A DNA stretch of 41,665 bases from a virus (Duplodnaviria > Caudoviricetes): positions 1-41,665 of the IMG/VR virus record IMGVR_UViG_3300033076_000311. One strand, given 5' to 3'. Under the pieces are notes generated by a model, which made no database searches, had not been told where the DNA came from, and saw nothing but the letters and a program-made list of their open reading frames with translations. Below, piece after piece: positions 5,022 to 38,791 of this stretch. How positions within the stretch are numbered: the stretch's first letter is position 1; the number at the start of each line of letters is the position of its first letter. A program made the position numbers and the translations under genes.

Positions 5022-5193
5022 TTGTCTTCTCCTCAAACCACTCTGGCTTTTTCTCTTTCAACTCATACAGACGAAGCATAGGCACTTCACCCATAGCCTT
5101 CCATTTGTAGCAAGCAGGTGCTGTGATACCCAAGATACGGGCGATCTCAGACAGGTTGCATTTACTACGCTCTAGCAATTCTTCAACTTTCAT
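5014..5193 (-). CDS. Cro-like HTH regulator, 59 aa (MKVEELLERSKCNLSEIARILGITAPACYKWKAMGEVPMLRLYELKEKKPEWFEEKTNG)
   Basis: Hand translation; HTH pattern IA..LGIT..A...W...G.VP..R; AAGGAG SD; below the ORF-track cutoff. Confidence 0.85.
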   Translation of the reverse strand: MKVEELLERSKCNLSEIARILGITAPACYKWKAMGEVPMLRLYELKEKKPEWFEEKTNG

Positions 5194-5693
5194 ACGTTCT
5201 CCTTGGTTGATTTCTCTACATATTCTGTAGTTGGGGTATATGGGAATGTAATTGGCACTGAACTATCTTTACTTGTGTAATGACTCTTGAACTTTCTTGT
5301 TCCTGGGTATCCAACATCATCTTCGTCTAGTTCTCGTTCGTGCCACTCATAAAACACAATGCCATTGATGTCATAAGCTTGACCATTAAATCTATCTGCT
5401 TGTTTGAAAACATGACTGCAACGCTTGTTTTGAAAAACACCAGGTGTAGGCTCGTGCCACTCCCAATCTTCTCCAGTTAAGGGAACAATAGGTTCAAACA
5501 ACGCAAGCTTCTTGAACAAATTAACAGCATAAGGCGCTGAAGATCCTGAATGGCCCTCATCGCTAAAGACTGTTAAAAGTTGCAATACATGCTCACAGAT
5601 TGCAGCTTGCATTTCATCTTTATATGCGCCCGTTTCATCCGTCCATCCAGCAGCACGAAACTCCATAACTGCATGCTTGTTCAAATTAGACAT
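5190..5693 (-). CDS. hypothetical protein
   Basis: ORF track; AAGGA SD; first gene of the leftward operon. Confidence 0.8.
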   Translation of the reverse strand: MSNLNKHAVMEFRAAGWTDETGAYKDEMQAAICEHVLQLLTVFSDEGHSGSSAPYAVNLFKKLALFEPIVPLTGEDWEWHEPTPGVFQNKRCSHVFKQADRFNGQAYDINGIVFYEWHERELDEDDVGYPGTRKFKSHYTSKDSSVPITFPYTPTTEYVEKSTKENV

Positions 5694-17834: not shown

Positions 17835-19447
17835 TAGAACGCATCCTCAGTAACTGTCGATTGAAGGTTCATAGCCGTCACATTCCATGTGTCTGTAGCA
17901 TCGTTAGTGCCAAACTTGATGGAAATAGAACGGCTGGACTGCTGTTCGGTAGTCATCCAAGGGTAATCAGTGTCAATATCCATTACGCCTTGCTGACCAT
18001 ACGTTGGATTTCTGCCAACAGCGTTTGATCCACCAATAGTCAGATTCAGTTTGCCAGTGCCAGACACTTCAGGCAAAGTCCTGTGAACATACACCAACGA
18101 GCTGTACGGAACGCCTGAGCCATCAGCCATGACCAATGGCATGTTGTTACGCTCAAACTCAGCGTCAATAGCCGAGCCTACAAAAGAATTGCCAACACCT
18201 GTCTGAATCAGCTTGGAGTTAGCAACTTCGCCTTTTGCATAGACAACAGTACGTGAAGCAAGCTTGAAAGCGCCACCGACAACCTTTGGACCTTCTGTTG
18301 CCATACAAGCATTCTGAATGTCTTTAGGTGCATTCCAGATGTCCAAATCGTAACGATATGACAGCATCTTGTTACACCAGCCTGTTGATGTCAGGTCAGG
18401 GTAATAGATTTCGATCTGATACTTCTGAGTGTTGTTCACCATGAACACACGGTCATAGTACGTCGAATTCAGGTTTTTAAAGAAGTAATCTTTGACTCGT
18501 TGGTTACCAATCGAGTTGAAGTTAGAACCGTCAAACACCCAGATGTCACGCGCATCCAAACCATAGACCATTGCATCAGTGTTGGTCCAACAGTTGTTGT
18601 TCAACAAACCACGGCCTTGGTTAAACAGACGGACACCAAAGATTGGAGCTGTCGTGCTTTGGTAGGCAATCGGAGAGAAAACAACTGTATCCCAGTACGA
18701 GCAAACGTAGAAGTTAGCGCCAAGGAAAAAGCCGTCAATCAATGGACCACGAACAGGAACTTCTTGCTCGTTAGCCACGTTAGACAAAGTAGGTTCCCAA
18801 GTGCCAGGAATGCCGGTATTGGCAAACGCCTGTGACCAACGAACTGTGGTGGGATAGTTGTATTCAGTACCGCTGATAACCTTAGTCAAGTTACCGGCGA
18901 TCAAGATGTTGCCTACGTTTGGAGAGCAGTAGTTGCGTACAAACCCAGCACGGGTACTAGTTACGCCTACGTCATAGTTCCATTCAGCATCAGAAGTGAT
19001 CGTGATTTCGTTGCTTGTAGGCAAGAAATGCATAGGATTGTTGATCGTGTCATTGATGAAAAACACGTTACCAACCCACGAAGTTGTGATGTTCAGGTTT
19101 GCTGTGTAGCCAGCCAAATAAGCATTTGGGTCAGAACCAACACCAGGTGTGATGTTAGACACCCCCGCTGTAGTAACCATGTACCACTTCCCGTGGCTGC
19201 TAGAGTCACGGGTAGCTACGATGTAAACCCAGCTAGTTTCACTGCGAAAGCCACCTTCCATAAAGATAGCGCCAGCAGGAACAGCCGTCAAAATCTCTTC
19301 TTCGCCAAAGATTTTCTTGATGCCACGGACATCAGCTTCGACGTTTTTACCTGAGTTATATTCCATCGGGCCAAGGGCGTTGCTAGGAACGTCTGGCGTG
19401 AAGGACATCTTTGAAAAGGGGGAGCGCAGCCGCTGATAATCAGCCAT
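17834..19447 (-). CDS. tail nozzle/stabilisation protein (P22 gp10 / T7 gp12-like)
   Basis: Beta-rich, TVRWS and FDGS.F.SIGNQRVKDYFF motifs; position before the fibre and ejection genes. Confidence 0.65.
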   Translation of the reverse strand: MADYQRLRSPFSKMSFTPDVPSNALGPMEYNSGKNVEADVRGIKKIFGEEEILTAVPAGAIFMEGGFRSETSWVYIVATRDSSSHGKWYMVTTAGVSNITPGVGSDPNAYLAGYTANLNITTSWVGNVFFINDTINNPMHFLPTSNEITITSDAEWNYDVGVTSTRAGFVRNYCSPNVGNILIAGNLTKVISGTEYNYPTTVRWSQAFANTGIPGTWEPTLSNVANEQEVPVRGPLIDGFFLGANFYVCSYWDTVVFSPIAYQSTTAPIFGVRLFNQGRGLLNNNCWTNTDAMVYGLDARDIWVFDGSNFNSIGNQRVKDYFFKNLNSTYYDRVFMVNNTQKYQIEIYYPDLTSTGWCNKMLSYRYDLDIWNAPKDIQNACMATEGPKVVGGAFKLASRTVVYAKGEVANSKLIQTGVGNSFVGSAIDAEFERNNMPLVMADGSGVPYSSLVYVHRTLPEVSGTGKLNLTIGGSNAVGRNPTYGQQGVMDIDTDYPWMTTEQQSSRSISIKFGTNDATDTWNVTAMNLQSTVTEDAF

Positions 19448-20993
19448 CTTCATCCTCTGTCATTTTGACCAGATTGGACATCAATCGTGCGTCTTTAGGA
19501 TTAAATTCTAGTGCTTTTTCACAAAGCGTGATTGCCTCTTTTTTGCGGCCCAAATGCCATGCAGCAATGCTTGCCAAGTCGTAAGGCTTCTCAGTCCACA
19601 CGGATGGGTCCATCGTATAGACCAAGGCTTTATCCTTGATTCCCAATGACTTCTGAGCAGCAAAATAGCACTGATTCCAATCAGACAGCATGTAGCTAAA
19701 CATAGCCAAATCAACCCAAGGCTCACGTGTGCCTGGCGCTTCAGCGCAAGCCGCCATGTACCACTTTAGAGCTTCGCTATGATTTCTCAAATGTTCATAG
19801 CTTTTGCCTAAAAGACGCATGGCATAGCAACGCTCGTTAATCCATGTTGCCCCATCCATTTCAAGGTACTTGTGCAAGTAGGTAACAGCCTCATGCCAAC
19901 GACCATAGAACGTCAGTTCACGAGCATGGTAAAAAGCATTACGTGGGCAGGTTGGATCTTCTTTGATTGCCAGCTCAAGGAGAGGCATGTATTGACCACG
20001 GCTCTTTGTTGGATCGGGGTGGTGGCTGACCAGTAGCATGTCCGTGTGAGCATATATCTCGTTAGTCCTGCCGTCAGGACGTGGATATTCGTGGACAGGG
20101 TGATGCCAGTGGTAGCCGTGACGGTGGTGGATTTTTTCGTAGAAGAACGAAATGCCACAACCCCAATCAAACTTATAGCGCAAACGGGTTGTATTGCTTT
20201 TCCACACGCGCTCAATTTCTTCACGCCAGCCAGGCTCAAGCACTTCGTCAAGGTCTAACGAGATGCAGATGTCGTAGTCACGGGGAATTAAAGAGAGAGC
20301 CGCATCCCGCGCTTTGTCAAACCGCCAAGGGCTGATGCAAATTTCGGGTACTACGGCTCCGTAAGATTTTGCAAAGGAAACTGTCTGGTCTGTCGAACCA
20401 GTATCAGCGATGAGAATCATATCTGCATCTTTGGCAGAAGTGCAGAATCTTTCTACAAATTGCTCCTCGTTTTTACTGATTGCATATACGGCAATTTTTA
20501 GCTTGCGGTACACATAAACACCGATCTCGTTATCAATCTTGTACTCAGATGGAGCGCCAAACAGCTCAACAACTTGCTCATGTGAATAGTCATCAACCAC
20601 ATGCTTTTCGTAAGGGTTACCTTCGTATTCGTCTTGAGGGTAGTAGCCTAGCGGGATACTGACAATGACTGTTTTGCAAGTAGCACGAAGCTTGTCAAGC
20701 AGACGTTTTGCGTCTTCAGATGACATGTGTTCTAGAACATCGCCAACAAACGCGATGTCAAACTCTGTGTAGTCAATCAGTCTGGCATCTTCACAAATCA
20801 CTTTGTCATAAAGTGATTCCAAGTTGTATTGGTCAATGTACTTTTGCCAGACCTCAACGGCAGTCCAATGTCCTTGTAGATTAGGAAGTAGCTTCCTGTA
20901 AGTTCCGCTGCCAGCACCAATGTCTACAATTTTCTTTCCTGTCAAATTCAAAGATTTGACGTACTCTTTACCTGATTCAGAACTGAATGGCAT
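19440..20993 (-). CDS. class I SAM methyltransferase - GT2 glycosyltransferase - TPR fusion
   Basis: VDIGAGSG and GDVLEHM; ISKNEE, DTGSTD, RFDKARD and DLDE (DxD); C-terminal TPR-like helices. Confidence 0.88.
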   Translation of the reverse strand: MPFSSESGKEYVKSLNLTGKKIVDIGAGSGTYRKLLPNLQGHWTAVEVWQKYIDQYNLESLYDKVICEDARLIDYTEFDIAFVGDVLEHMSSEDAKRLLDKLRATCKTVIVSIPLGYYPQDEYEGNPYEKHVVDDYSHEQVVELFGAPSEYKIDNEIGVYVYRKLKIAVYAISKNEEQFVERFCTSAKDADMILIADTGSTDQTVSFAKSYGAVVPEICISPWRFDKARDAALSLIPRDYDICISLDLDEVLEPGWREEIERVWKSNTTRLRYKFDWGCGISFFYEKIHHRHGYHWHHPVHEYPRPDGRTNEIYAHTDMLLVSHHPDPTKSRGQYMPLLELAIKEDPTCPRNAFYHARELTFYGRWHEAVTYLHKYLEMDGATWINERCYAMRLLGKSYEHLRNHSEALKWYMAACAEAPGTREPWVDLAMFSYMLSDWNQCYFAAQKSLGIKDKALVYTMDPSVWTEKPYDLASIAAWHLGRKKEAITLCEKALEFNPKDARLMSNLVKMTEDEDG

Positions 20994-29591: not shown

Positions 29592-29618
29592 AAAAAGAAG
29601 ACCCCGAAGGGCCTTCTT
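29592..29618 (-). terminator. intrinsic terminator after the major capsid gene
   Basis: AGAAGGCCC-TTCG-GGGTCTTCT followed by a T tract on the minus strand. Confidence 0.85.
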
Positions 29619-37411: not shown

Positions 37412-37900
37412 TCATACCTTTCTTAAGGATTCCATGAAATCGTCCAACGCTTCCTCAGCAGAAGTGTTTTCTTCGCTATTGACCATGTTGTTCACATGTT
37501 CGATAGAGATGATTGGCGCACGGGATGATTCAAACGCCGCCAGCTTATCAGCAATCCTGGCTTTCTCTTTAATGTCGAGTTGGTCAGAATTCATCGCCAT
37601 GATAAGGGTCTCCATAGCCGATGTCAAAGGACCATGACCTTTAGCTATCGCCTCTTCGTTCATCTTATTAAACGTAGCTCCATATTCGGTCACACGGTTA
37701 ATGATGGACTTAGGACGACCATTTGGGTTGTTCACAGTTCCAAGGGGAGGACCACCCATGCCAGCGCGAGGCATTTTTTCGCCAGAAGCAATCTTCATGG
37801 CTTTCTTCTCGGCATTACGAGCACGAGCAGCGTCACGAGCTTTCTTTTTATGTTCTTCAGTATTCTGTTTAACAGTGGGTTGTCTTATTTCGTCAAACAC
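37412..37900 (-). CDS. putative terminase small subunit
   Basis: NNPNGRPK motif, helical core; GGAGG SD before GTG 37900; upstream of TerL. Confidence 0.6.
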   Translation of the reverse strand: MFDEIRQPTVKQNTEEHKKKARDAARARNAEKKAMKIASGEKMPRAGMGGPPLGTVNNPNGRPKSIINRVTEYGATFNKMNEEAIAKGHGPLTSAMETLIMAMNSDQLDIKEKARIADKLAAFESSRAPIISIEHVNNMVNSEENTSAEEALDDFMESLRKV

Positions 37901-38445
37901 TTGATAGCCTCCTCTGTACGGATCCATGCATAAGAACCGTTTACGACAAAACCACGCTTTTTGTGGATTTTCATAAAACCATCATGGTCAGCACGGATAG
38001 AAGTAGAACACACAATCGGAATTGCGTTTTTATAGGCCCAAAGTATATGCTGATCAATCATCTCGTTAACCAGACGTATACGAGTACGTACAGGCAAGCT
38101 AAGGTCAACATGGTGGAATTTAGCATTTGAGATTTCTTCGTTTGAGTAGGTCGTATAGCCGCCACGGTCAAACCAGCAAAAGCCAAGAAGTTTGCTAACA
38201 GTGTCGTGACCAGAAAATCTATTGTTGTGGTCAAACAACGGAACAATCTCAGGTTCCCCGCGGCACACAGCAATAAACTCTTTGGACTTGTTGAACAGTT
38301 GTTCAGTAGTAGCAACAGTCAACCTATGTCGAAAGACGTTCCTATCCCGATTCAATATCCCTTCAACCTCTGATCCGTAAACAGAGTCAGCCAATTCAAT
38401 CATGTCGTCAATGTCATGAAGAGGGTGTGCCAGTGTCCATTCCAT
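37885..38445 (-). CDS. GNAT-fold acetyltransferase-like protein
   Basis: LLGFCW strand, HVD, W-A...I-V strand and terminal KKRGF pattern; acetyl-CoA loop degenerate; start MEWT. Confidence 0.55.
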   Translation of the reverse strand: MEWTLAHPLHDIDDMIELADSVYGSEVEGILNRDRNVFRHRLTVATTEQLFNKSKEFIAVCRGEPEIVPLFDHNNRFSGHDTVSKLLGFCWFDRGGYTTYSNEEISNAKFHHVDLSLPVRTRIRLVNEMIDQHILWAYKNAIPIVCSTSIRADHDGFMKIHKKRGFVVNGSYAWIRTEEAIKCLTK

Positions 38446-38482
38446 ACTATGCCTTTCCAGTGCGGAGCAAAGAAAATTTTTT

Positions 38483-38757
38483 GCTGGTGGGCCGTTTATC
38501 CCCGACATGGCTCAGACGGCTCGCTGACTTTTTGCGGGATCTTCATACACCAACACGGCTGAAGACTGACTTGCCCGTTCGAACGCTTATAAGGCACTAA
38601 GCAGAGGACAATCTTCATGCGTGTTAGCGCCGTCTCTCCGGCTGTCTCTGTGTTTGACCTTCAGCCTCCACAGTTGAGACTTCGTATCGCACGACTTTCG
38701 AGAAGGTTCCTCTACGCGGTCTGTCGTTCTGGCCGTTAACGGTTAGCTCTCACCAAC
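38483..38757 (-). ncRNA. candidate structured leader RNA/ncRNA of the late operon
   Basis: Two GUUGGUG copies with two complements, a long central stem and several hairpins; starts at the predicted TSS. Confidence 0.55.
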
Positions 38758-38763
38758 AACCAA

Positions 38764-38791
38764 ATTATAAGACCACACGCTCCTTTAGCAA
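38764..38791 (-). promoter_or_regulatory. sigma70-type promoter for the late operon
   Basis: TTGCTA-N16-TATAAT on the minus strand. Confidence 0.65.

Follow-up and report, generated by a model that had tools for sequence, protein, structure and literature searches.

What is the role of a non-coding stretch of about 275 nt at the head of a phage virion operon? The stretch belongs to a complete 41.7-kb virus record (41,665 nt, hereafter the window), whose virion genes are of podovirus type and lie on the minus strand. The closest named relative is MW202484, an uncultured spring phage with a terminase identity of 84.5%. The region is placed between a promoter at 38791-38764 and the first gene of the virion operon at 38445-37885. 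An earlier note on this DNA had described it as one structured RNA with interchangeable helices and had proposed three readings: a cis-acting antitermination or timing switch, a processed small RNA, or a packaging RNA. Comparison with homologous loci divides the region and its surroundings into the following parts.

38764..38791, minus strand: sigma-70-like promoter, TTGCTA-N16-TATAAT, with a predicted start at G38757, 7 nt past the -10 box
38742..38757, minus strand: 5' mini stem B with a GNRA loop, GUUGGU-GAGA-GCUAAC, which folds alone at -4.0 kcal/mol
38625..38741, minus strand: module X, the body of predicted RNA 0, ending in GCCG-GAGAGA-CGGC (38642-38629) plus G-CUA
38609..38627, minus strand: left arm of stem A, CUA-ACACG-CA-UGAAGAUUG, from the family consensus and covariation
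38569..38608, minus strand: insert 1, 40 nt, with the hairpin GCUUA/UAAGC and a self-complementary 10-mer
38550..38568, minus strand: right arm of stem A, CAGUCUUCA-GC-CGU-GUUGG, the last 5 nt being common to stem B
38548..38554, minus strand: 5' strand of stem B, GUUGGUG, equal to tRNA positions 1-7, with a predicted RNase P cut 5' of G38554
38490..38547, minus strand: insert 2, 58 nt, an extended hairpin that recurs in other contigs
38482..38489, minus strand: 3' strand of stem B, CACCAGC, and the discriminator-like A38482, followed by an A/U-rich leader
37885..38445, minus strand: first operon gene, 186 aa, GNAT-acetyltransferase-like, the anchor for orthologous loci

Promoter slot and folding of the region

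The proposed TTGCTA-N16-TATAAT promoter with a start at GUUGGUG was found at the position listed, and GUUGGUG begins at 38757. The -10 box and the region upstream of it are kept in L001 and L005. The earlier note saw no credible ORF over the element; an ORF from ATG 38508 overlaps insert 2, but homologues start at Met 38445. The product of the first operon gene had an Atlas feature score of 0.96 to GNAT clusters and no Pfam match, and none of its 761 homologues is named. Further into the operon, at 37627-37599 (minus strand), we observed a second strong promoter-like site, TTGACA-17-TATCAT (11/12). The terminator at 29592-29618 is present as had been described, directly after the capsid gene. 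Two other minus-strand genes gave clear matches: the product of 5190-5693 matched the Pfam family of Tad3, a type I Thoeris inhibitor (E 1.8e-33), and represents a protein counter-defence gene, and that of 19440-20993, within the virion gene block, matched a beta-1,4-glycosyltransferase family in PHROG (E 1e-95).

Using the downstream gene, we retrieved 80 orthologous loci, 79 of which were usable (L050, with the gene at the contig edge, was dropped). The slot after the promoter holds a full unit of the type described below in 18 of the 79 loci, a lone stem-B unit in 9, a tRNA (tRNA-Asn/Thr) in 5 and other content in 12, plus one false call; 34 loci are empty. The 18 scaffold loci and the 5 tRNA loci were assigned by hand, and L006, a false 'empty', was left out of the 34. 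The slot of L005 has the same promoter and leader as the window and nothing between them, and that of L001 contains two units that differ from each other. Because L005 is empty and other relatives carry different units, tRNAs or nothing, the element is optional cargo and unlikely to be a required operon control. The same slot is also filled, with or without a unit, by a recurring uncatalogued module starting GUCUUGGACACGCAGAC, which was observed upstream of a unit or a gene in L015, L017, L023, L024, L026, L036 and L342.

The pairing elements named in the earlier note were all located in the sequence: GUUGGUG at 38757-51 and 38554-48, CGCUAAC at 38629-23, CACCAGC at 38489-83, the ACGCAUGAAGAUUG/CAGUCUUCAGCCGU helix, and the hairpins GCCG-GAGAGA-CGGC and GCUUA/UAAGC. 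The assignment of the minus strand as the transcribed one also stood. For the central hairpin, the folding energy is -27.6 kcal/mol (z -3.6) on this strand, as compared to -19.7 kcal/mol (z -1.8) on the plus strand, and G-U pairs favour the minus strand, with 399 G-U cells against 10 A-C cells in stem A of 238 homologues. The notion of a single structured RNA of about 275 nt did not survive, with a fold z of -1.09 and 28 of 200 shuffles folding as well. Neither did the side-by-side fold, for which the pairing 38757:38623 has a probability of about 0. In the equilibrium model, the dominant structure is the nested fold (P 0.96-0.99), with the 5' GUUGGUG paired to the terminal CACCAGC; L011 has no 3' partner and cannot adopt this fold.

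A local hairpin at the 5' end, GUUGGU-GAGA-GCUAAC (38757-42), had been absent from that description. L011 contains the same module behind GUUGGU-GUGA-AUCAGC, and because it keeps this hairpin and has no distant partner, the local form is the conserved state. The 5' GUUGGUG thus most likely closes a local GNRA hairpin. Instead of four interchangeable helices in one RNA, we found separable modules, a 5' module and a two-insert unit, with inserts that are swapped between phages. Mutually exclusive pairing is conserved solely between the base of stem A (CUAACACG/CGUGUUGG) and stem B (GUUGGUG/CACCAGC).

Module X was identified in two other phage contigs, L011/L341 and L342, in which its order relative to the units differs. 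In the three sequences, 3 of 27 consensus pairs are changed on both sides. Three pattern scans for more relatives gave just two, and five of the seven matches of one scan were due to chance. The CUA that ends the module is also where stem A begins, making up its first 3 nt. Stem A is often directly preceded by a hairpin whose loop reads GAAAGA or GAGAGA, with N-CCA/CUA after it; one lies at 38642-38629, and others were seen in L139, L185, L230, L247, L250, L260, L265, L284, L285 and L342.

A family of units with a constant scaffold and exchanged inserts

The 3' half of the region (38627-38482) is one unit of a large family that has no Rfam entry. Exact patterns of the right and left arms occur in about 920 and 780 IMG/VR stretches, respectively (tool estimates). 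We retrieved 120 loci per arm pattern, and a strict caller identified 238 distinct units in 409 loci; since the units were gathered by sequence pattern, the conservation of the searched arm is inflated. Each unit is laid out as CCA/CUA-ACACG-CA-UGRRGAUUG, insert 1 (20-104 nt), CAGUCYYCA-GC-CGU-GUUGGUG, insert 2 and CACCAAC-A. In this layout, a constant, covarying hairpin encloses insert 1 and overlaps with a 7-bp stem, also constant, that encloses insert 2. The collection of homologues with a check for covariation, suggested in the earlier note, has in this way turned up a covarying constant hairpin in a large family.

Stem A is composed of 8 bp, a 2x2 loop and 9 bp, with 19 positions, and the loop is CA/GC in 177 of 226 cases. 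When the search was made with the left arm only, a complementary partner at 9/9 positions was found in 115 of 122 units, as compared to 10.3 in shuffles. A G-test over 361 left-right column pairs, made with no tree correction, ranked four predicted pairs of upper stem A at the top. For stem B, a score of at least 12 was obtained in 134 of 162 units versus 50.5 in shuffles. Its pairs 6, 7 and 8 are held in 149, 144 and 76 of the 162 units, and we take the stem to be 7 bp long because pairs 6 and 7 hold widely and pair 8 in just 76.

The units form 39 tandem junctions with each other, and in many loci they are co-oriented at a short distance before a ribosome binding site. The genes that they precede are many and unrelated, including those for terminase, helicase and methylase. 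Inspection by eye of the ORFs closest to the units in 80 loci revealed no evident neighbour gene in common, and a tRNA was located within 1.5 kb in 10 of 80 loci. The element matches no Rfam family in the window, and Rfam searches of 80 homologous loci gave just tRNAs, one separate Betaproteobacteria-1 RNA and sub-threshold matches. The Betaproteobacteria-1 RNA is a true one (93 bits; L297, 728-845, minus strand), a separate element about 500 nt downstream of a unit array; in the window, the corresponding model (RF02932) had no match and was rejected as a candidate. The sub-threshold matches included int-alpA RNA on the same strand near units (L095 518-586, L150 334-410 and L158 1033-1107), which possibly represent a further module family.

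A blastn search of named phages matched MW202484 only and found no cultured carrier, and plasmids gave short chance matches and nothing more. No description of the scaffold was found in the literature searched, and four supplementary files of Fremin et al. 2023 (PMC10690425) contained no match, although single inserts or arms may be present among the unnamed candidates of that study. A search of 185,579 prokaryote genomes with the right-arm pattern returned 19 matches, 14 of which were without a left arm. The other five were full units, all on contigs shorter than 3.5 kb. Four of these are in Burkholderiales bins of one genus, with genomes of 1.3-3.8 Mb, and three of the four contigs have genes with phage-family matches; the fifth unit is in a Flavobacterium bin. 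This binning provides a hint of a Burkholderiales host and not a host assignment.

The inserts are shuffled to a high degree. Single-linkage clustering placed 406 inserts from the 238 units into 187 families, including 108 singletons and 3 that occur in both slots, and the 168 complete units represent 154 family combinations. More than one partner was observed for 36 of the 41 repeated insert-1 families, and more than one follower (the next insert 1) for all five repeated insert-2 families, showing that this junction is unlinked. The two inserts of the window follow the same pattern: insert 1 is present in 7 IMG/VR contigs, each with a different insert 2, and insert 2 in 5 other contigs, behind 4 other kinds of insert 1 (in the pattern scan for insert 2, 35 of 40 matches were unrelated DNA). 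The fold of both is kept in small alignments, and for insert 2, 3 of 21 consensus pairs are changed on both sides in 6 sequences. Across the insert families, folding is slightly better than in shuffles, with a median z of -0.55 and 14% below -2. Crossing over in the constant arms would be a simple explanation of the swapping, and we infer that the arms likely serve as crossover points at which inserts are reshuffled. The phage encodes a Sak-like annealing protein.

A few inserts have features of their own. The self-complementary 10-mer CGUUCGAACG of insert 1 (38585-38576, minus strand) is a possible dimerisation site, and another self-complementary 10-mer is present in L139/L402 and L404. The largest family, F0 (30 members in a looser count that includes a few opposite-strand duplicates), occurs in both slots and has constant ends and a variable U/G-rich middle, for example in L097, L148, L158, L161 and L163; we consider it the best candidate for a first functional test. 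A common hairpin followed by CUUUAAGUG, possibly a pseudoknot, is found in two mutually unrelated insert families, one in L146 and L263 (insert 2) and the other in L150, L183 and L240 (insert 1). This arrangement is reminiscent of a type III antitoxin RNA. The Rfam ToxI model gave such a likeness no support, with RF02519 over the cut-off in none of five phage records and the four best weak matches outside the inserts.

tRNA register and predicted processing

Five homologues (L159, L194, L149, L114 and L177) pass the Rfam cut-off for tRNA, in a set of scanned loci that was partly chosen for T-loop motifs. In these five, the tRNA model begins at the G of GUUGGUG and ends at the A that follows the stem, and the anticodon or D arm is enlarged. 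T-loop motifs were found in 20 of 187 insert families, as compared to 8.6 +/- 2.3. A tRNA lies within 130 nt upstream of five units, and in four of these its CCA is identical to the first 3 nt of stem A. MW202484 contains one such unit, with the CCA of the upstream tRNA opening stem A. Stem B is in the register of a tRNA acceptor stem, with 7 bp and a discriminator A.

The promoters offer a second view of the same ends. In 8 of the 9 lone stem-B units (representing about two insert families), the start lies 6 nt past a -10-like box, like G38757, and two units that open a transcript (L001 and L003) have a predicted start at ACACG with the same spacing after the box. Because lone units start at GUUGG and L001 and L003 at ACACG, the 5' ends made by promoters would match the predicted cut sites.

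The two alternative stems are close in energy. In the window, form A and form B have energies of -40.5 and -40.9 kcal/mol, and the median difference in 170 units is 1.0 kcal/mol. The equilibrium model prefers, in this phage, the nested fold that would hide stem B. The window unit gave no tRNA call with ARAGORN or Rfam, and its insert 2 lacks the D, anticodon and T arms; the T arm is missing from most inserts. An encoded CCA after the discriminator is rare, with the tail AACCA in 8 of 170 units and mostly AACCU, AACUU or AACUA, and the window unit ends in an A run, so that recognition by RNase P would lack its usual 3' contact. RNase P of E. coli is described as processing hairpin-like phage RNAs that have no T loop (PMC5499578). 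The near-invariant sequence of stem A exceeds the needs of RNase P, which implies a further binder or nuclease, as yet a predicted one. Three runs labelled RNA-Seq, probably of DNA, cover the region only in scraps.

These observations are consistent with the following course of events. Transcription from the adjacent promoter would give a polycistronic precursor of the tRNA type. Stem A would fold first, while the RNA is still being made, and would hold two ends, the CCA-like 3' end of the upstream RNA and the 5' end of the downstream one, GUUGG. After synthesis of CACCAGC, branch migration would let stem B displace the base of stem A; in this phage, the two forms lie within 0.4 kcal/mol of each other. 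RNase P would thereby gain access to an acceptor-like stem, and the upstream 3' end would become available for trimming. The predicted products are RNA 0 (38757-38625), RNA 1 (38624-38555) and RNA 2 (38554-38482). For the released RNAs, the probable role is a trans-acting one, in which their structures serve as decoys for proteins of the host.

The steps of this scheme differ in strength. That the element is a processed, trans-acting RNA cassette we regard as probable. Support is lowest for the decoy role, in which tRNA mimics and other folds would keep defence nucleases or RNA-binding proteins of the host occupied, and we put it forward tentatively, at somewhat below even chances. Such a role in an arms race would fit because the inserts are diverse, freely exchanged and optional, and share their slot with tRNAs; no insert matched a known decoy family. 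For the scheme in full, with a likely transcribed chain of swappable non-coding modules, its likely cleavage to small stable RNAs by the tRNA-processing enzymes of the host, and a probable role of these RNAs as trans-acting decoys, we see slightly more in favour than against. Among the three readings given at the outset, the processed small RNA gained support from the tRNA-acceptor, tRNA CCA and promoter registers, and no support was found for the antitermination or timing switch or for the packaging RNA.

Alternative readings, known systems and implications

The strongest competitor, which we nevertheless consider unlikely, is that the RNAs, once released, regulate mRNAs of the host or of rival phages by antisense base pairing, in the manner of P4 CI and P1 C4, and that the inserts vary with their targets. 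CI and C4 are hairpin-like phage RNAs matured by RNase P (PMC5499578), and families F0 and F3 show variable single-stranded stretches that are U/G-rich or CU-rich. The search for targets spoke against this reading. In the flanking DNA of 97 loci, the mean longest match was 8.1 versus 8.0 in permuted controls for insert 1 and 8.3 versus 8.4 for insert 2, matches within the window genome were 10 nt at most, and the anti-Shine-Dalgarno motif was not enriched (12 versus 12.1). Motifs for CsrA, the hammerhead core, K-turn-like motifs and short ORFs were not enriched in the inserts either. It is improbable, to a further degree, that stem A serves a single protein as a fixed handle, be it a host double-strand RNA binder or nuclease such as RNase III or ProQ or a phage protein, on a handle-plus-effector RNA that is uncut or cut once, as in Y RNA or a guide array. 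Such a handle would explain why its 19 positions and near-fixed 2x2 loop (CA/GC in 177 of 226) are more constrained than pairing needs, and tandem arrays with 39 junctions do exist. Cleavage by RNase III follows a defined overhang rule, and the predicted ends, after CCA and before GUUGG, leave 2-nt 5' overhangs, which is the opposite geometry. The inserts, at 20-104 nt and structured, are unlike fixed-length guides, no neighbour gene was evident as common to 80 loci (nearest ORFs, by eye), and the arms do not contain the Ro60 motif GNCGAA described in PMC4201824.

A cassette that mainly cuts or caps the downstream mRNA, with the inserts as passengers, would account for units co-oriented shortly before the ribosome binding site in many loci. 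We give this reading little credence, given that the inserts keep their conservation in unrelated contexts and show compensatory changes there, that tandem units occur, and that 34 of 79 relatives do without any. Lower still is our estimate for stem A as a DNA recombination hairpin of the integron attC type, with insert 2 as the cassette. Sites of the attC type have a characteristic size range, carry RYYYAAC and GTTRRRY boxes and fold from the bottom strand. The hairpin span of 58-142 nt and the AAC...GTT ends of 131 of 238 units agree with this, but RYYYAAC is present in 4 and GTTRRRY in 15 of the 238 units, the wobbles favour the transcribed strand (399 G-U versus 10 A-C), both junctions are unlinked, no integrase was found among the 62 ORFs scanned, and the tRNA register would be left unexplained. 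The least probable reading, to which we assign hardly any weight, is a cis-acting antitermination or timing switch similar to HK022 put, or a packaging RNA. The position at the predicted start of the virion operon, the internal terminator of this operon and the fact that no Q- or N-like gene was recognised among the window ORFs scanned had made it attractive. However, L005 has the same promoter and leader and lacks the element, as do the 34 empty loci among the 79 orthologous ones, and tRNAs replace it in five. Elsewhere, the genes that follow a unit include those for terminase, helicase and methylase. It is ordinary for a capsid gene to be followed by a terminator, and the strong promoter-like site at 37627-37599 may offer a second start within the operon. 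HK022 put is a structured RNA just after a promoter, whereas the element described here is optional, variable and not tied to one operon.

The processed cassette can be compared with several known systems. Like clusters of the T4 RNA C and RNA D type, which are non-coding RNAs in tRNA-carrying phages, the units are associated with tRNAs and abut their CCA ends. T4 has two fixed RNAs, whereas the two constant stems described here frame inserts of at least 187 families, with recombination at both junctions. Late phage RNAs, including RNA C and RNA D, are listed as being of unknown function in PMC9697503. With tRNA itself (RF00005), the unit has in common an acceptor stem with a discriminator and five homologues over the cut-off, but insert 2 of the window has no cloverleaf arms, the homologues that resemble tRNA deviate by an enlarged anticodon or D arm, and CCA is rarely encoded. 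The antisense targets of CI and C4 are close by in the same phage. In our case, there are no nearby antisense targets, no Rfam match to such models, and an additional constant hairpin with an insert of its own; the likeness to P4 CI, P1/P7 C4 and phi80 M3 RNA lies in short RNAs with an acceptor-like terminal stem and no T loop that are processed by RNase P (PMC5499578), processing being predicted for the units.

The Y RNA YrlA also joins a constant helix to a tRNA-like domain and is also found in phages, as described in PMC4201824. The units differ from it in having no GNCGAA in the arms, no Ro60 match among the window ORFs scanned, and a normal acceptor-stem topology. The PeSL cassettes of T4-type phages, as presented in PMC2839356, resemble the units as repeated intergenic cassettes in which recombination shuffles modules, but they are promoter-terminator units that shuffle genes, whereas the folds shuffled here are non-coding, 20-170 nt long and inside the RNA. 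The pseudo-ToxI of PhiTE, according to PMC3475682, provides a precedent for the suppression of a defence by a non-coding phage RNA through mimicry; in contrast to the units, it is a direct repeat of one antitoxin with no scaffold. The proposed mechanism resembles the processing of tRNA clusters, and it is the two-slot, freely shuffled architecture that makes the scaffold notable.

The scaffold can also be viewed as a naturally occurring design by which a single transcript would yield several structured RNAs. Its fixed frame, predicted ends and at least 187 natural variants make processing and function testable insert by insert. If the inserts are decoys, they would represent a large catalogue of RNA-based counter-defence. 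In its broadest form, the proposal is that freshwater Burkholderiales phages run a standardised RNA cassette, in which a self-timing scaffold would make use of host tRNA maturation to set small RNAs free in pairs and would draw on a shared pool of hundreds of unrelated folded inserts, shuffled at constant arms. We regard this as conceivable and rather doubtful. If true, the cassette system would be an RNA counterpart of the hotspots of anti-defence genes, and behind each insert family one would expect an RNA-binding or defence protein of the host, many of these being unknown.
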